From the IMG/VR virus record IMGVR_UViG_2695420523_000008: 4,707 nt of DNA. One strand, given 5' to 3'. Position 1 is the stretch's first letter. Every line of letters begins with the position of its first letter. Positions 1 through 4,707 of this stretch are shown here, piece by piece. Under the pieces are notes generated by a model that worked only from the letters and a program-made list of their open reading frames with translations, had not been told where the DNA came from and did not search any database. The DNA is from a virus (lineage: Duplodnaviria; Heunggongvirae; Uroviricota; Caudoviricetes). The position numbers and the translations under genes were made by a program.

Positions 1-60
1 CATGGTGCTGTCCTGTAAAGCAATGCGCCTGCGTTCCTCAAACTATGGCGCTGATATTGG

Positions 61-366
61 CTATTCATGCTCTTTGACCTTGCGTCGCTGGAGTTCTTCA
101 CGCGCGACGGTGACGAGTTGCCCGATCTCCTCGGCTGCTTTGATGCCGATTTGTTCGACCTTAGCCAGGGCATCCAGTGACGACACAAGGGGATTTTCTC
201 CGCTGCCTTCTGCTTGGCGGCGGGCTATTTCTCCGCGCATGGCGGTTACGATAAATCCGGCATTGCTTTCACCGTCCAGCTTAACGGATTCCATCCCTTG
301 CATAACATCTAGTGGGACTCTGACAGTTGTCAGTTGTGATTTTGCGTTTTTGTTAGCCGTTGCCAT
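61..366 (-). CDS. Putative ribbon-helix-helix (Arc/Mnt/CopG-like) transcriptional repressor, 101 aa
   Basis: ORF 61..366 on minus strand. AGGAG Shine-Dalgarno (complement of 375-379) lies 8 nt upstream of the ATG (complement of 364-366). The segment TTVRVPLDVMQGMESVKLDGESNAGFIVTAMRGEIARR fits the RHH pattern of beta-strand, helix, G-x-S-x-N turn, helix. It is transcribed divergently from the rightward operon and sits next to the palindromic operator-like sites. Family assignment is by motif pattern only. Confidence 0.6.
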   Translation of the reverse strand: MATANKNAKSQLTTVRVPLDVMQGMESVKLDGESNAGFIVTAMRGEIARRQAEGSGENPLVSSLDALAKVEQIGIKAAEEIGQLVTVAREELQRRKVKEHE

Positions 367-387
367 TTCTGAAACTCCTAATCATCG

Positions 388-465
388 GTGTGTTTCAGTA
401 TACACAAAAAAAGAAATACAAAAAGCCTTGACGTGTGTTTCATGCGCTCATAACATGAAACACAC
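388..465. promoter_or_regulatory. Operator-like sites: three copies of GTGTGTTTCA, including a perfect 12-bp inverted repeat
   Basis: GTGTGTTTCATG at 433-444 and its exact reverse complement CATGAAACACAC at 454-465, separated by a 9-bp spacer; a third copy of the half-site GTGTGTTTCA at 388-397, followed by the palindrome GTATAC at 398-403. The sites overlap the -35/-10 of the rightward promoter and the candidate -10 of the leftward promoter. Confidence 0.55.
428..456 (+). promoter_or_regulatory. Sigma70-like promoter for the rightward operon
   Basis: TTGACG at 428-433 (5/6 match to TTGACA), a 17-bp spacer, then TAACAT at 451-456 (4/6 match to TATAAT, with the conserved T1, A2 and T6 present). 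About 100 nt upstream of the first rightward start codon. Predicted from consensus only. Confidence 0.45.
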
Positions 466-493
466 CGAAAGGATTGTTGAAATACAAAGAGCA

Positions 494-527
494 ACGCCCC
501 GCAGTGCTGGGAACACATACGGGGCGT
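494..527 (+). other. Stem-loop in the leader of the rightward operon (8-bp GC-rich stem, 18-nt loop)
   Basis: ACGCCCCG at 494-501 pairs with CGGGGCGT at 520-527. No U-tract follows, so it is not a canonical intrinsic terminator. It lies between the predicted promoter and the first SD/ATG at 546-559. Confidence 0.3.
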
Positions 528-556
528 CTAACCAACAACGTAAACTAGGAGCCGTT

Positions 557-754
557 ATGGTTGCTGTAAATCATATACCACACCTTGTACACACACAAAC
601 GGCCTTTGTGTGGCGTTTTCTGGCACTGAGTGCCGGAGAATCTCAAATCATCCACGTAACCGCCTGGACGGAACGCGAAGCGCGTAGCCGTTGCCCGTCC
701 GGTTGTGTTGCTGTATTCGCTGCAAAAATCCGCCAGGGAGTGAGTCATGCTTAA
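557..754 (+). CDS. Hypothetical small protein, 65 aa (first gene of rightward operon)
   Basis: TAGGAG at 546-551, 5-nt spacer, ATG at 557. This is the in-frame 3' part of the long open frame 2..754, whose 5' part overlaps the better-supported minus-strand gene. Stop TAA at 752-754 overlaps the next start by 8 nt. A resemblance to Icd-like small proteins of P4-type elements is only a vague recollection and is unverified. Confidence 0.4.
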   Translation: MVAVNHIPHLVHTQTAFVWRFLALSAGESQIIHVTAWTEREARSRCPSGCVAVFAAKIRQGVSHA

Positions 755-932
755 AACCTTCCGTGTATTTGCCCGAGCTGTTAACCCAATAGGCCACACA
801 ATTGGTATCGCTCAGAATGTGAAGGCTGTTAATGTTCAGACGGCTATTGCTGCGGTGAGAAGCGAATCATCAGAATATGGCTTATCACAAGTCATTATTT
901 CAGCAGTGTATGAATTAAAAGAGGTGCATTAA
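747..932 (+). CDS. Hypothetical small protein, 61 aa
   Basis: ORF track 747..932. GGGAG at 736-740 precedes ATG 747 by 6 nt. Its stop TAA at 930-932 overlaps the next ATG at 932 (TAATG), indicating translational coupling. Confidence 0.5.
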   Translation: MLKTFRVFARAVNPIGHTIGIAQNVKAVNVQTAIAAVRSESSEYGLSQVIISAVYELKEVH

Positions 933-1123
933 TGCAGGAAATTACATTACACGAAGCCGCTGAACGTGCGCACCAGACAGAAATTATTTGCCGCCTTCTT
1001 GAGGTATACCCGAACAAAATTACAGATGCTGATATATCCGCACTGGCGAGCCTACTGGCGCGTCTTTCGGGAAGTGTCGCTAGTTTTTTGATTGAGGAAG
1101 AAAGTAAGCTGGTGGGGGATTAA
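932..1123 (+). CDS. Hypothetical small protein, 63 aa
   Basis: ORF track 932..1123. GAGGTG at 921-926 with a 5-nt spacer to ATG 932. Its stop TAA at 1121-1123 is immediately followed by the next ATG at 1124. Confidence 0.5.
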   Translation: MQEITLHEAAERAHQTEIICRLLEVYPNKITDADISALASLLARLSGSVASFLIEEESKLVGD

Positions 1124-1345
1124 ATGAATACAGAACGGGAAGTCTTTTTTAAATTGTTAGCATGTGCAGAAAGTTCATTAACTTTAAATAATTCAGCAAA
1201 AGCAATATTAAATATGTGGCTTGATTGCATAAATGACAATGAAGATGCAAATATTGCTTATGGCCTGTTGTCACTTATTGATGAATCAGCAGAAAAACTC
1301 AATGACGCAATAAATAGTGCCCTGCTATCAAATAAGTCGAGTTAA
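1124..1345 (+). CDS. Hypothetical small protein, 73 aa, encoded by a markedly AT-rich segment
   Basis: ORF track 1124..1345. G-rich SD-like GGTGGGGGA at 1111-1119 just upstream. The first 60 nt contain 19 G+C, roughly one-third GC, against about half in flanking genes. Protein is rich in N, L, S, D, E, A. Confidence 0.5.
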   Translation: MNTEREVFFKLLACAESSLTLNNSAKAILNMWLDCINDNEDANIAYGLLSLIDESAEKLNDAINSALLSNKSS

Positions 1346-1362
1346 GTCGAGGAATAAATAAT

Positions 1363-1662
1363 ATGGAAATGAAAAATTCTGGCTTTATTGCCAGCGGCCC
1401 CGCTCGACCTGAATTTATGAACGACGATATTTACCGCGATAAATACGGCGGCACGGTAACGATTAAAGGCGTGGCAGAACGGCGCATCACTTACCGCCGT
1501 GAGGGGTATAGCTATGACTGCGTGATGCCTGTTTATCAGTTCCGGCGTGATTTTTCCCTGGTATATGCCGCACCCCGCAGTAAGCCCATCAGCAGGGAAA
1601 AAGCGTGGGGAAATATCCAGAAAATGAAAACCATGATTAACGGATTCAGAGGTAAAAAATGA
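1363..1662 (+). CDS. Hypothetical protein, 99 aa, translationally coupled to the replication gene
   Basis: ORF track 1363..1662. AGGA at 1350-1353 about 9 nt upstream of ATG 1363. Its stop TGA at 1660-1662 overlaps ATG 1659 of the next gene (ATGA). The antisense ORF 1342..1692 is rejected in its favour. Confidence 0.55.
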   Translation: MEMKNSGFIASGPARPEFMNDDIYRDKYGGTVTIKGVAERRITYRREGYSYDCVMPVYQFRRDFSLVYAAPRSKPISREKAWGNIQKMKTMINGFRGKK

Positions 1663-3413
1663 AACTGGCACCGAACGTAAAACAGCAGTCACGCGGCATA
1701 AAACACAAAGGAACAGAAGTCATTATTTTTGCGGGTAGTGATGCCTGGGCACACGCGAAACAATGGCAGGAACATGATGCGCGTATGGCCGGAGATAATG
1801 AGCCTCCTGTGTGGCTTGGGGAGCAGCAGCTATCCGAACTGGATAATCTGCAAATTGTGCCGGAAGGCCGAAAATCAGCACGCATATACAGGGCCGGATA
1901 TCTTGCGCCTGTAATGATAAAGGCGATTGGTCAGAAGCTGGCGGCAGCAGGCGTACAGGATGCAAATTTTTATCCTGAGGGTATGCACGGCCAGGAGGTG
2001 CAGAACTGGCGCGAATATCTGGCCCGTGAACGCCAGAATCTTTCTGATGGTCTGGTCATTGAGCTTCCGGTAAAGCAAAAGGCGCAACTTTCGCAGATGG
2101 CGGACAGTGAGCGCGTGCAGTTGCTTGCCGATCGCTTTGATGGCGTTTGCGTACATCCTGAAAGTGAAATCGTTCACGTATGGCGCGGCGGGGTATGGTG
2201 TCCGGTCAGCACAATGGAACTTAGCCGCGAAATGGTGGCGATCTATTCAGAGCACAGGGCCACTTTCAGCAAGCGCGTAATCAATAACGCCGTGGAAGCG
2301 TTAAAAGTTATTGCCGAACCAATGGGCGAGCCGTCTGGCGATTTGCTGCCGTTCGCCAATGGTGCGCTTGACCTGAAAACGGGGGAATTTTCCCCGCACA
2401 CGCCGGAGAACTGGATCACCACGCACAACGGCATTGAGTACACGCCACCAGCACCAGGGGAGAACATCCGCGATAACGCGCCAAACTTTCATAAATGGCT
2501 TGAGCACGCAGCCGGAAAAGACCCGCGCAAGATGATGCGTATATGTGCCGCGCTGTACATGATTATGGCGAACCGGTACGACTGGCAGATGTTTATTGAG
2601 GCCACCGGAGACGGCGGGAGCGGTAAAAGTACATTCACACACATAGCCAGCCTTCTGGCAGGGAAACAGAACACGGTAAGCGCTGAAATGACATCGCTTG
2701 ATGATGCTGGTGGACGTGCGCAGGTTGTCGGGAGTCGTCTTATCGTCCTGGCTGACCAGCCGAAATATACAGGCGAAGGAACGGGCATCAAGAAAATCAC
2801 AGGCGGCGACCCCGTGGAAATTAACCCGAAATATGAAAAGCGTTTCACGGCGGTAATCAGGGCGGTGGTGCTGGCGACCAACAACAACCCGATGATATTC
2901 ACCGAACGGGCCGGAGGTGTGGCACGTCGTCGCGTGATTTTCCGTTTCGACAATATCGTCAGTGAGGCCGAAAAAGACAGGGAGCTACCGGAAAAGATTG
3001 CGGCTGAAATCCCCGTTATTATCCGCCGATTGCTGGCGAACTTTACCGACCCTGAGAAGGCACGGGCTTTACTACTGGAACAGCGTGACGGTGATGAAGC
3101 ACTGGCAATAAAGCAACAGACGGATCCGGTTATTGAGTTTTGCCAGTTCCTGAATTTTCTAGAGGAAGCGCGCGGCCTGATGATGGGTGGCGGTGGTGAT
3201 TCAGTGAAGTACACGACCAGGAACAGCCTTTACCGCGTCTATCTGGCGTTTATGGCATACGCGGGCAGGAGCAAACCGCTAAACGTGGCTGAGTTCAGCA
3301 AGGCCATGAAGCCAGCGGCGAAAGTTTACGGGCATGAATATATTACGCGAAAAGTTAAGGGAGTAACGCAGACCAACGCAATTACAACAGACGATTGCGA
3401 CGCGTTTTTATAA
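1659..3413 (+). CDS. Replication initiator with SF3-helicase core (P4 alpha C-terminal / D5-like family), 584 aa
   Basis: Long ORF 1659..3413. Walker A GDGGSGKST at residues 317-325 (nt 2607-2633); Walker B-like LIVLAD at residues 361-366; motif C VVLATNNN at residues 403-410. The roughly 40-residue spacing A to B to C is typical of SF3 helicases. AGAGGT SD lies about 6 nt upstream of the ATG. The N-terminal ~300 aa has no motif I can confidently assign to a primase class. Confidence 0.88.
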   Translation: MKLAPNVKQQSRGIKHKGTEVIIFAGSDAWAHAKQWQEHDARMAGDNEPPVWLGEQQLSELDNLQIVPEGRKSARIYRAGYLAPVMIKAIGQKLAAAGVQDANFYPEGMHGQEVQNWREYLARERQNLSDGLVIELPVKQKAQLSQMADSERVQLLADRFDGVCVHPESEIVHVWRGGVWCPVSTMELSREMVAIYSEHRATFSKRVINNAVEALKVIAEPMGEPSGDLLPFANGALDLKTGEFSPHTPENWITTHNGIEYTPPAPGENIRDNAPNFHKWLEHAAGKDPRKMMRICAALYMIMANRYDWQMFIEATGDGGSGKSTFTHIASLLAGKQNTVSAEMTSLDDAGGRAQVVGSRLIVLADQPKYTGEGTGIKKITGGDPVEINPKYEKRFTAVIRAVVLATNNNPMIFTERAGGVARRRVIFRFDNIVSEAEKDRELPEKIAAEIPVIIRRLLANFTDPEKARALLLEQRDGDEALAIKQQTDPVIEFCQFLNFLEEARGLMMGGGGDSVKYTTRNSLYRVYLAFMAYAGRSKPLNVAEFSKAMKPAAKVYGHEYITRKVKGVTQTNAITTDDCDAFL

Positions 3414-3426
3414 TTTTTTGTAAAAG

Positions 3427-3650
3427 CCATCTACCCCATCTACCTGAACGAAATAAACGCATATTATTCAACATGATAAGTGGGTATAGGGCTAGGTAGA
3501 AGGCTAATAAAAGCTCTCTACCTCTTCTACCTGATTTTATCAGTTTCAGGTAGCAGGGTAGACGGCAGGTAGAGGAGTCAAAAAAGCTATCTACCCGCTG
3601 AAAGCCGCGCCATTACTGACATGATGAGCATTCGGGTAGATGGGTAGAGG
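3427..3650. repeat. Iteron array; candidate origin of replication for the element
   Basis: GGTAG on the top strand at 3495, 3549, 3557, 3568, 3635 and 3643, and CTACC at 3431, 3440, 3518, 3527 and 3591: 11 copies in about 220 bp, where about 0.4 would be expected by chance for one 5-mer on either strand. A perfect tandem 9-mer CCATCTACC x2 at 3427-3444 is mirrored by the inverted pair GGGTAGATGGGTAGAGG at 3634-3650. AT-rich stretches at 3446-3490 and 3504-3513 lie between repeat clusters. Located directly 3' of the helicase gene. Confidence 0.6.
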
Positions 3651-3698
3651 GGGGGAGGCACAACTAAAAACTTTTTAAACGAGGGGGGGTGAAAATAA

Positions 3699-4013
3699 AT
3701 GCGCATACATAAAAATCACTTAACAAACATGCCAGCCGAAAACATGAATCAGGGGCGACAAATGACCAAAATTCGCAGAGACAGAACACAGGCAAAATAT
3801 AAAGCGTTAGACATGACAGAGCTTTCCTTAAAGGTGGCAATCAAAGCGATAGACCACCACACACGGGCAGGATACGCGAAGGAACATCCCGACCTGATAA
3901 GCGCATTCATGACCACAGCAGCGGCAAACTTTGCCACGCTGACAGAACGGGAGATTGCCGAAGCGGAACAGGTGACAACCATCAATGTTAAAACCGGAGA
4001 GCAGACAGCATGA
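3699..4013 (+). CDS. Hypothetical protein, 104 aa (alternative starts possible at 3729, 3744 or 3762)
   Basis: ORF track 3699..4013. A G7 tract at 3683-3689 sits 9-16 nt upstream of ATG 3699 as a possible SD; the internal ATG at 3762 has its own AGGGG SD. Its stop TGA at 4011-4013 overlaps ATG 4010 of the SSB-like gene (ATGA). No recognisable motif. Confidence 0.5.
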   Translation: MRIHKNHLTNMPAENMNQGRQMTKIRRDRTQAKYKALDMTELSLKVAIKAIDHHTRAGYAKEHPDLISAFMTTAAANFATLTEREIAEAEQVTTINVKTGEQTA

Positions 4014-4432
4014 CAGCACAGATAGCGGCTTACGGGCGGCTGGTGGCTGACCCGCAGTTAAAGACCACCAGCAAAGGGACACAAATGGCGATGGCGAGTA
4101 TGGCGGTTCCCCTGCCGTGCAGCCAGGCAGATGACGGAACGGCGACGATGTGGTTATACGTCCTGGCGTTTGGCAGACAGGCCGACGCACTGGCAAAACA
4201 CCACAAAGGCGAACTGGTGAGCGTGGCGGGTAACATGCAGGTAAGCCAGTGGACAGGCCAGAACGGCGAAACGCGGCGGGGCTGGCAGGTTATCGCAGAC
4301 AGCGTAATCAGTGCGCGAACGGCGCGACCGGGCGGCAAAAAAGGCCAGCAGGGGCAGGCCACTGACGCACTGAACAGGGCAAAACAACAGTCGGGGAATG
4401 ATGATCCGTACGGCGATAATATACCGTTTTAA
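4010..4432 (+). CDS. ssb: Single-stranded DNA-binding protein (SSB) paralogue, 140 aa, with host-like C-terminal tip
   Basis: The N-terminal ~110 aa aligns by eye with the OB-fold core of E. coli SSB: GRLVADPQL against GNLGQDPEV, and WLYVLAFGRQADALAKHHKGELVSVAGNMQVSQWTGQNGETRRGWQVIADSV against [52 protein letters not shown]. A short Gly/Gln-rich linker follows, and the C-terminus DDPYGDNIPF matches the acidic D-I-P-F tip of bacterial SSB. Confidence 0.8.
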   Translation: MTAQIAAYGRLVADPQLKTTSKGTQMAMASMAVPLPCSQADDGTATMWLYVLAFGRQADALAKHHKGELVSVAGNMQVSQWTGQNGETRRGWQVIADSVISARTARPGGKKGQQGQATDALNRAKQQSGNDDPYGDNIPF

Positions 4433-4449
4433 ATTCTGCAAACAAAAAG

Positions 4450-4478
4450 ATGCCGGAAAAAAATAGATTTTCCGGCAT
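4450..4478 (-). terminator. Hairpin with perfect 11-bp stem; intrinsic terminator on the minus strand, possibly bidirectional
   Basis: ATGCCGGAAAA at 4450-4460 pairs with TTTTCCGGCAT at 4468-4478 around a 7-nt loop. On the minus strand the hairpin is followed by a U-rich tract (complement of 4438-4449, CUUUUUGUUUG). On the plus strand it is preceded by an A-tract but lacks a downstream U-tract, so it is at best a weak terminator for ssb. Confidence 0.5.
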
Positions 4479-4592
4479 GCTACATAAATCCCGACCAAAG
4501 GAAGTAAATACATTAACACGAATTATCAGCACTGAAGTTGTTACGGCATATTTTATACAGCATTGCACTTGGTTGCATGTATTCGCATAGCA

Positions 4593-4707
4593 GGTAATGA
4601 CTCCAACTTATTGATAGTGTTTTATGTTCAGATAATGCCCGATGACTTTGTCATGCAGCTCCACCGATTTTGAGAACGACAGCGACTTCCGTCCCAGCCG
4701 TGCCAGG
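4593..4707 (-). mobile_element. IS1 insertion sequence, terminal 115 bp including the right inverted repeat; continues beyond the window
   Basis: GGTAATGACTCCAACTTATTGATAGTG from 4593 matches the IS1 terminal inverted repeat as I recall it, and the following sequence through 4707 matches the IS1 insB-proximal end. Recognised from memory of the IS1 sequence, not searched. Confidence 0.88.
4608..4707 (-). CDS. insB: IS1 transposase InsB, 3' end (partial; start lies outside the window)
   Basis: Minus-strand translation of 4706..4608 gives [32 protein letters not shown] followed by a stop (TAA, complement of 4608-4610), 15 nt inside the IS1 end. Absent from the ORF track because no start codon lies within the window. 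Confidence 0.8.

Follow-up and report, generated by a model that had tools for sequence, protein, structure and literature searches.

A dense array of GGTAG/CTACC repeats lies immediately downstream of a P4-alpha-like helicase gene in the 4,707-bp stretch of DNA analyzed here (the window). Comparison with related islands indicates that a Gram-negative PICI, in this case a helper-embedded one, very probably has its origin of vegetative replication in this array. The array is an allele of an origin type that has already been published and supported by experiment, and in this respect it is known; because the EcCICFT073-type origin is in print, the novelty of the assignment is low. A second element within the same region, an invariant block that recurs at origins with unrelated initiators, is described separately below.

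A bidirectional repeat array in non-coding DNA

The pentamer GGTAG/CTACC was found 13 times in the 4,707-bp window, where 4.6 copies were expected, and 11 of these copies fell inside 3431-3647. None of 200 dinucleotide-preserving shuffles reached 13 copies. The hexamer TCTACC/GGTAGA was present 10 times in the window (0.98 expected), always within 3430-3648, and these are all of the GGTAGA hexamers of the whole 10.7-kb element, which thus fall in a single cluster. Ten of the eleven cores are GGTAGA, the remaining one being GGTAGC at 3549. With '>' denoting GGTAG on the top strand, the cores are ordered 3431<, 3440<, 3495>, 3518<, 3527<, 3549>, 3557>, 3568>, 3591<, 3635> and 3643>. Given this order and orientation, the outermost members of the array are tandem pairs, spaced at 9 and 8 bp and inverted relative to each other. 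The pairs 3431/3643, 3440/3635, 3518/3557 and 3527/3549 share a common centre at 3539-3540, resulting in a rough dyad symmetry that is merely approximate in other alleles. The iteron at 3590 also forms a perfect 9-bp inverted repeat with 3633-3641, enclosing the invariant block. The counts and shuffles confirmed the eleven pentamer cores in about 220 bp of non-coding DNA that the initial annotation had reported, as well as the inverted tandem pairs that it had placed at the array boundaries.

The stop codon of pri-rep occupies 3411-3413 and the first iteron begins at 3430, 17 bp past the stop, so that the array is directly 3' of the helicase gene, as had been claimed. Between this stop and the next conserved ORF at 3699, whose ATG is the annotated start in CFT073, we found only ORFs of 39 aa or less. 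No part of the window matched an Rfam family at E <= 1, and neither a sigma-70-like promoter nor an intrinsic terminator was found in a scan of 3300-3800. The interspersed AT-rich stretches described earlier were also recovered, with a GC content of 0.23 at 3450-3479 and a second low of 0.37 at 3510-3549. The AT-rich tract at 3445-3480 is flanked by two iteron sets, 3430/3439 on one side and 3483/3495 onward on the other, and likewise in nine alleles. In all nine, a GC minimum of 0.10-0.23 lies at a constant offset of 32-71 bp past the stop codon. The features of the region are listed in Table 1.

Table 1. Positions of the putative origin, its repeats and the neighbouring genes in the window
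Feature	Position	Strand	Basis or remark
Initiator gene Pri-Rep, 584 aa	1659-3413	+	Pfam, PDB, P4 alpha and EcCICFT073 matches
Pri-Rep N-terminal domain, 140 aa, narrow family	1659-2078	+	77 representatives among 1.84 billion proteins, always N-terminal
Pri-Rep D5_N	2118-2504 (residues 154-282)	+	Pfam
Pri-Rep SF3 P-loop helicase DUF5906	2604-2909 (residues 316-417)	+	Pfam
Pri-Rep C-terminal winged-helix domain, predicted to bind the origin	about 3117-3386	+	Pox_D5 (residues 487-575, Pfam); 1ka8 match
Whole non-coding region, putative origin	3414-3698		Between pri-rep stop and next ORF; homologous to EcCICFT073 intergenic region
Left outer tandem iteron pair, TCTACC	3430-3435, 3439-3444	-	9 bp apart; invariant in 9/9 E. 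coli alleles
AT-rich tract, candidate DNA-unwinding element	3445-3480		GC 0.23 (3450-3479)
Degenerate copy GGTATA and iteron GGTAGA	3483-3500 (3483-3488, 3495-3500)	+	Number and orientation vary between allele groups
Inner left tandem pair, TCTACC	3517-3522, 3526-3531	-	9 bp apart; pairwise identity 0.96 across alleles
Short AT-rich spacer at approximate dyad centre	3532-3548		Centre about 3539-3540
Inner right iterons, GGTAGC, GGTAGA and GGTAGA	3549-3554, 3557-3562, 3568-3573	+	3557 and 3568 invariant in 9/9 alleles
Single iteron TCTACC	3590-3595	-	Directly upstream of invariant block; invariant in 9/9 alleles
Invariant non-iteron block CTGAAAGCCGCGCCATTACTG	3598-3618	+	19/21 columns invariant in nine alleles; spacers 55%
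Right outer tandem pair, GGTAGA	3635-3640, 3643-3648	+	8 bp apart; 3643 invariant, 3635 variable or deleted in some alleles
Conserved AAAACTTTTTAAAC, then G-rich ribosome-binding site of downstream ORF	3667-3698	+	Invariant columns, nine-allele alignment
Downstream replication-module genes	3699-4432	+	104-aa protein (phrog_1231, function not annotated) and SSB at 4010-4432

The adjacent gene encodes a P4-alpha-like helicase

The gene preceding the array had been called a helicase gene. This was borne out by its Pfam domains (Table 1) and by the similarity of its product to P4 alpha, whose residues 324-756 align with residues 141-573 of the product and are 40% identical to them (E 2e-111). NCBIfam likewise recognized the C-terminal region of the 'phage/plasmid primase, P4 family'. 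Residues 488-576 matched the solved P4 origin-binding domain 1ka8 (E 8e-6), and residues 195-432 matched a 797-aa 'DNA primase' chain, 7ola (E 4e-15), which we take to be the SaPI5 Pri-Rep helicase. Residues 1-140 had no match in Pfam or NCBIfam, and hence none to a primase family; they matched weakly to one PHROG annotated as primase. Since no counterpart of the alpha primase domain was detected, 'helicase' is a more apt name for Pri-Rep than the database name 'primase'. In a protein search with the initiator, matches were limited to near-identical E. coli proteins, and tblastn against a phage collection gave mostly remote primases, P4 not being among the matches listed.

The array belongs to an island inserted in a prophage portal gene

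Positions 1-4593 of the window are E. coli DNA, 99.8-99.9% identical to 55 complete genomes. Matches to 9620 records are due to the final 114 bases, an IS1 end. The window belongs to a 10.7-kb island, located at 12592-23280 in strain Z0117EC0116 (L001). This island encodes int, an HTH regulator, BRO-N, a divergent YlcI/YnfO gene, an Icd-like protein, small ORFs and DUF4222, as well as a 'DNA primase family protein', a small ORF, SSB, major capsid and head decoration proteins, a further HTH protein and the small terminase. Gram-negative PICIs are unidirectional elements of about 10-15 kb with int, an alpA-type regulator and pri-rep plus ori, and carry some late genes without a full phage gene set. 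The island corresponds to these elements in gene content, order and size, and its gene order, as annotated, is that of Gram-negative PICIs and parallels EcCICFT073.

The island splits the portal gene of a DLP12-like lambdoid prophage at L001 12395 / 23280, is co-oriented with it, and has AAGGCGATnTATG as its crossover (att) core. The island-portal junction was detected in 64 of 5426 complete E. coli genomes. An island inside a prophage portal gene is the configuration described as a helper-embedded PICI, and the same study also puts ori downstream of pri (PMC10111431). Judged by its location and gene content, the island is a helper-embedded PICI of E. coli. Two other repeat families are present in it: arm-type repeats with the sequence TGTGTATTGCAA, three of them beside int and one at the right end of the island, and three copies of a 54-bp repeat just past the terS operon (L001 22724-22869), separate from the GGTAGA array.

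The homologous region of EcCICFT073 has been tested as an origin

We located EcCICFT073 between roxA and phoQ in the CFT073 genome (L002). Its Pri-Rep is 98% identical to the initiator of the window, and the intergenic region 3' of the gene contains 11 GGTAG cores in the order and orientation seen in the window, with cores and non-iteron blocks identical and in register. Both regions thus lie immediately 3' of pri-rep and have 11 copies of the GGTAGA/TCTACC core in one and the same order. They also share the AT-rich tract and the 21-bp block, and in both a small ORF and then SSB follow downstream. By contrast, their spacers have diverged, blastn aligning 65% of the window's origin region to CFT073 at about 78% identity. 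EcCICFT073 has an extra '<' copy where the window has the '>' copy at 3495, and its cores are flanked as GGTAGAYA, whereas no flank preference was seen in the window. The insertion sites also differ, EcCICFT073 being located in a chromosomal att site and the present island in a prophage portal gene.

The ori of PICIs has been defined as lying immediately 3' of pri-rep, with two iteron sets flanking an AT-rich region (Fillol-Salom et al. 2018, PMC6092414), and the region in the window agrees with this definition in position, in iteron/AT layout and in homology. In the published test of EcCICFT073, colonies formed at the restrictive temperature of 44 degrees C when a temperature-sensitive plasmid carried pri-ori, and maintenance was significantly worse for constructs without ori or without most of pri (Fillol-Salom et al. 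2018, PMC6092414). Deletion of ori is reported to have 'significantly reduced' colony numbers, and abolition is not stated (PMC6092414). We mapped the published primers and found that pri-ori corresponds to L002 about 7100-9210, ending just inside the next ORF, and that pri-delta-ori ends at about L002 8902, 3 bp past the pri-rep stop. These positions indicate that the deleted DNA is exactly the homologue of window 3417-3720, that is, the intergenic array. The iteron-origin reading put forward in the initial annotation is supported accordingly, the homologous EcCICFT073 region being needed in cis (PMC6092414).

Iteron cores are conserved across E. coli alleles

The intergenic regions of nine E. 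coli alleles were aligned; the initiators of these alleles share 81-98% identity with that of the window. Mean column identity was 76% overall. Under the eleven cores, mean pairwise identity was 0.88 and 48 of 66 columns were invariant, versus an identity of 0.55 in spacer columns; in 10000 random draws of eleven hexamers, the identity of the cores was never attained. In this alignment, the iteron cores are evidently under purifying selection while the spacers drift. Eight sites make up a conserved backbone (3430, 3439, 3517, 3526, 3557, 3568, 3590 and 3643). GGTAGC at 3549 was seen in this allele alone, and is therefore probably not a conserved site. GGTATA at 3483-3488 is a degenerate twelfth copy; in the alignment, the O157 and O103 alleles have GGTAGA at the 3483 as well as the 3495 place. 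CFT073-type alleles have one '>' copy around 3483-3500 and an extra '<' copy further on.

Relationship to P4, SaPIs and SF3-helicase viruses

In the P4 record (NC_001609), crr at 4291-4590 adjoins the alpha stop at 4636 and is made up of a 120-bp unit in two direct copies. Each copy holds five type 1 repeats, and both orientations are present; the annotated rep_origin is 4.5 kb from crr. The type 1 repeat in this record is TGTTCACC and variants. The CFT073-type core GGTAGACA (also TGTCTACC) equals P4 GGTGAACA at 6 of 8 positions and differs at two, and a GGTGAAC cluster is absent from the window. The motif does differ from the P4 type I iteron, as the initial annotation had stated, though it is a close variant of it. 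P4 and the island are alike in having as initiator a homologous SF3 helicase with a C-terminal winged-helix domain, and short repeats in both orientations immediately 3' of its gene. They differ in that P4 uses two cis sites, ori and crr, 4.5 kb apart, whereas the PICI island has one cluster; crr is made of two 120-bp direct repeats, whereas the PICI array is one roughly dyad-symmetric unit; and the primase domain of alpha (residues 1-323) appears to be replaced in Pri-Rep by an unrelated 140-aa domain. By its place next to the initiator gene, the PICI array is the positional counterpart of P4 crr. The parallel originally drawn with SaPIs, PICIs and P4 was thus correct in that ori is 3' of rep in PICIs and the C-terminus matches 1ka8, but it missed that the P4 array at this place is crr.

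SaPIs and other Gram-positive PICIs resemble the island in having ori 3' of rep, with two iteron sets around an AT-rich region (PMC6092414). Their helicase domain is detectably homologous, as judged from the match to 7ola (E 4e-15), presumably the SaPI5 Pri-Rep structure (PMC9371898), but there is no DNA similarity, and the iterons, N-terminal domains and C-terminal domains are all unlike. A more distant likeness exists to the core origins of SF3-helicase viruses, namely the GAGGC pentamers of SV40 large T antigen and the E1 sites of papillomaviruses, in which an origin-binding domain on an SF3 helicase reads a pentamer or hexamer, and inverted pairs stand beside AT-rich DNA. This parallel suggests a head-to-head assembly of hexamers, although the origin-binding domains are unrelated and the PICI array is larger.

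To a coarse degree, iterons co-vary with the initiator C-terminus

Scanning one genome per species, we obtained 34 loci with initiator relatives of 40-52% identity; a further locus, from Shigella, was at 90%. Several loci have an array just 3' of this gene that resembles the window's in layout and differs from it in core, namely those of Pectobacterium (L011; 617 aa, same short architecture; GGTGAA(CA) x9), Morganella (794 aa; TGTTCAT x11) and Aeromonas (785 aa; CAGTGC (CAGTGCC) x7). Most Pantoea and Erwinia loci in the same scan had no clear array. Among the loci gathered here, GGTAGA was found in 20 of 20 dereplicated alleles with a C-terminal domain at least 83% identical to the window's; the N-terminal domains of these alleles were 41-96% identical to that of the window. 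Where the C-terminal domain was 30-45% identical, the cores differed. GGTAGA thus tracks the C-terminal domain and not the N-terminal domain, which fits recognition of the iterons by the C-terminal domain.

The initial annotation had suggested checking whether the repeat consensus co-varies with the initiator C-terminus. Co-variation held across the 20 alleles and broke down in one comparison: the L140 initiator, 44% identical overall, is accompanied by GGTAGACAGTT / GGTAGACA iterons and the Pectobacterium initiator by GGTGAACA, yet the C-terminal domains of the two are very similar except in the presumed wing. Across these loci, the co-variation between iteron and presumed binding domain is coarse only.

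Alternative functions of the array

The positional match with crr raises the alternative that the array is an accessory site, bound by the initiator and required in cis through looping or local concentration, with synthesis starting elsewhere. P4 provides the precedent, since crr sits 3' of alpha with rep_origin 4.5 kb off and the initiator is homologous to alpha, but we consider such a role unlikely here. The GGTAGA hexamers of this island, EcCICFT073 and the O157 island fall inside the array in 10 of 10, 11 of 12 and 11 of 11 cases, respectively, and a second cluster is found in none of the three. The array is also devoid of the 120-bp direct-repeat structure, and the published pri-ori fragment contained pri-rep and the array region only, yet was maintained (PMC6092414). 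One cluster per island in three islands, together with the published sufficiency of pri-ori, argues that the array is the origin itself and not an accessory site.

Two further functions were weighed against that of an origin. The repeats may mainly serve control, as operator or titration sites through which Pri-Rep, AlpA or HTH proteins set copy number or downstream SSB/capsid transcription. Plasmid iterons commonly double as copy-control (handcuffing) sites, and the array is inside a unidirectional operon, just upstream of the ribosome-binding site of the next ORF. Nevertheless, 3300-3800 contains no promoter- or terminator-like site, the motif follows the initiator gene and not the regulators across islands with different regulators, and deletion of the region impairs replication-dependent maintenance in EcCICFT073 (PMC6092414), all of which makes control as the main function highly improbable. 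A control role is compatible with origin function, and the two could coexist. Short bidirectional repeats are typical, too, of integrase arm sites and of cosB/pac, and the island has both an integrase and a small terminase. An arm-site cluster beside att, which the initial annotation had named as the finding that would overturn its reading, was excluded by position and by repeat sequence: the att junctions are 6 kb upstream and 4.5 kb downstream and have the different repeat TGTGTATTGCAA, and the GGTAGA array stays by pri-rep in islands with other integrases and att sites. A terminase (packaging) recognition site is unlikely because the separate 3 x 54-bp repeat is situated just past the terS operon, and we regard either of these two functions as having almost no chance of being correct.

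An invariant block recurs at origins with other iterons and initiators

Between the iteron at 3590 and the pair 3635/3643 lies a non-iteron block with the consensus cTcAAgCCGCGCCATTACTGGcyT. An exact scan of viral contigs for AANCCGCGCCATTACTG returned at least 120 loci. With 16 specified bases, a few chance matches are expected in a collection of this size, so that some of the 29 context-less loci among the matches listed may be due to chance. GGTAGA was present in only about one quarter of the distinct block flanks among the matches listed; in other flanks listed, the block lay between two sets of TGTGCG (3+3), GTGTACC (5+5), TGTCCAA (3+3) or TGTCAC, and further iterons around it included AAAAGTGTCAA, GGTTCATCGG and more, giving more than 15 specificities among these matches. 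Among the matches listed, 58 of 92 dereplicated block sites had six or more copies of one hexamer within 150 bp; of 405 control windows drawn from these contigs, only one did.

The associated initiators were similarly diverse. Among the matches listed, 55 block loci had a lambda-O-type gene (PF04492), with the origin inside the gene and a lambda-like AT-rich tract adjoining, 33 had an SF3 Pri-Rep, and 3 had an AAA_25 helicase, which in at least one locus (L061) bears the same N-terminal domain as the protein of the window. Kapi1, HK633, mEpX2, IME10, HF4s and Yersinia phages are among the named phages whose O gene contains the block, and 48 records of Stx2a-converting phages match the block, where the O-type origin region aligns. 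These lambda-type origins resemble the array in that the block AAnCCGCGCCATTACTGG stands between two iteron sets beside an AT-rich tract. They differ in having an unrelated initiator (O plus P or a DnaB-like helicase), an origin within coding sequence, and iterons of other sequences, arranged as direct repeats. In lambda itself the four iterons are contiguous, and we know of no such block in its ori sequence. The block is also absent from P4, a further difference between P4 and the island, and from the Pectobacterium array. Copies with 1-3 substitutions were found on plasmids, including a 2.3-kb E. coli Rep_1 plasmid, a Salmonella O-type plasmid, small plasmids of Klebsiella and Yersinia, and P. 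syringae pPT23A-type plasmids. Among the matches listed, the block reads as xSNGAx in most O genes and as KPAPLL on the opposite strand in L124, and is non-coding in about half of the loci; the different reading strands and the non-coding copies indicate that the constraint acts on DNA. The block is thus conserved irrespective of iteron and initiator family, and deserves separate follow-up.

We compared the block with known sites. Its sequence was not found in the open literature, and the EcCIMP1/Kapi1 paper contains nothing on origins. The six-iteron origins of Stx phages (PMC7466680) are lambda-like and are not this block. A ColE2-type origin was not supported: P. syringae pPT23A-type plasmids have their ColE2-like ori at the repA 3' end or immediately beyond it, and in one such plasmid the block-like motif is about 570 bp downstream of that gene. 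A canonical pC194-type nick site was rejected, as CTTGATA is absent from the Rep_1 plasmid's intergenic region. Inspection by eye gave no convincing match in the block to the consensus of LexA, DnaA, IHF, Tus or sigma-54 sites, and the fit to the degenerate Fis consensus was loose. The sequence TACTGGCTT is presumably common to the block and the nick region of ColE1 oriT, a likeness that is no more than a lead and that was not confirmed by searching the open literature. Tentatively, we propose that the block may be an undescribed, initiator-independent core element of enterobacterial mobile-element origins, a possibility that we consider somewhat less likely than not. The most economical reading of its function would be a site for something common to all these replicons, such as a protein of the host that docks there, or else a fixed place at which loading or priming occurs.

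Proposed initiation mechanism and implications

If the array is the origin, initiation could proceed as follows. After induction and excision, Pri-Rep would bind the GGTAGA iterons via its C-terminal winged-helix domain, and the oppositely oriented tandem pairs would place SF3 helicase hexamers on either side of the AT-rich tract or tracts. By analogy with the viral SF3 helicases, we infer that a double hexamer assembles at the array. The AT-rich DNA at 3445-3480, and perhaps also that at 3532-3548, would then melt, the helicase would unwind outward, and the island SSB would coat the strands. Because Pri-Rep has no detectable P4-alpha primase domain, we propose that priming is probably carried out by host primase, with synthesis by Pol III.

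Taken together, these findings extend the published architecture of PICI origins to a helper-embedded PICI. They also define a conserved backbone of eight to nine GGTAGA sites plus an unwinding tract, which may help in PICI annotation and in the design of satellite-based vectors. As only two bases separate the PICI iteron from the P4 type 1 repeat and the array corresponds in position to crr, the replication modules of PICIs and P4 appear to be tied more closely than the literature states. The invariant block, if functional, would point to a step in origin activation that has gone unrecognised and is shared by lambdoid phages (Stx2a-converting phages among them), their satellites and some plasmids.

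Island boundaries and control regions

In a DLP12-like lambdoid prophage, the island splits the portal gene and has the same orientation as that gene (L001, the E. coli strain Z0117EC0116, 11562-12395 / 23280-24062, outside the window), with AAGGCGATnTATG as its att core. Of 5426 complete E. coli genomes, 64 carry this island-portal junction, and location within a prophage portal gene is the helper-embedded PICI configuration (PMC10111431). Repeats at the island ends and past the terS operon are candidate integrase arm sites and a candidate packaging site, respectively (Table). At the 3' end of the window, most other genomes have the major capsid gene downstream of ssb instead of IS1. The full window was matched by only one record, from an O121 strain, where the match falls into three pieces separated by IS1A.

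Table. Sequence features of the island and of the region around the origin
Feature	Location	Description
Divergent control region	window 385-479	between YlcI/YnfO-family gene (61-366, minus strand) and Icd-like ORF (557-754)
Initiator N-terminal domain	window 1659-2078 (residues 1-140)	narrow-family 140-aa domain in place of P4-alpha primase region
Invariant non-iteron block	window 3598-3618	CTGAAAGCCGCGCCATTACTG, 21 bp, inside origin
ORF after origin	window 3699-4013	protein in phrog_1231
IS1 element end	window 4594-4707	last 114 bases; inserted downstream of ssb
TGTGTATTGCAA, four copies	L001 12520-12575 / 23199-23212	island ends; candidate integrase arm sites
Three repeats, 54-bp spacing	L001 22724-22869	short hairpin in each; just past terS operon; candidate packaging site

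In the divergent control region, GTGTGTTTCA is present three times; the copies include a perfect inverted repeat of 13 bp (385-397 / 456-468) and overlap a sigma-70-like promoter (window 428-456). The repressor switch of the island probably uses these copies as its operator. C4 / isrK-type RNAs have been reported for some PICIs; no match to them was found in the window. For the ORF after the origin, RefSeq annotations differ in the start codon: several genomes have it at the position corresponding to 3762, and CFT073 at that corresponding to 3699. A conserved G-rich ribosome-binding site and an invariant AAAACTTTTTAAAC lie upstream of the ATG at 3699.

Initiator N-terminal domain and origin block

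Despite its annotation as 'DNA primase', the initiator has no recognisable primase domain; P4 alpha carries a primase region at this place, whereas the initiator has the 140-aa domain. The family of this domain is very narrow, with 77 representatives in 1.84 billion proteins, N-terminal without exception. The domain is also the most variable part of the initiator, with 41-96% identity across alleles that share the same iterons. At locus L061, this same domain is fused to an AAA_25 helicase, which likewise has a block-containing origin downstream.

The block CTGAAAGCCGCGCCATTACTG was also detected at L046, L064, L117, L124, L145, L159, and L165-L169, and in small plasmids. In lambda-O-type, SF3, and AAA_25 replicons, it occupies the middle of arrays built from iterons of many other specificities. 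We found no occurrence of the block in the searchable literature.

Iteron specificity in distant relatives

In distant relatives, the layout of the array is kept and its core is changed (L011, from Pectobacterium, 4271-4600; L012, 3863-4160; L140, downstream of a 602-aa Pri-Rep). The cores are GGTGAACA, TGTTCAT, and GGTAGACAGTT, the first of which is shared with P4. L140 and L011 are nearly identical in the C-terminal helix region of the initiator, and their cores differ by two bases. These two loci would be a natural pair for dissecting iteron specificity.
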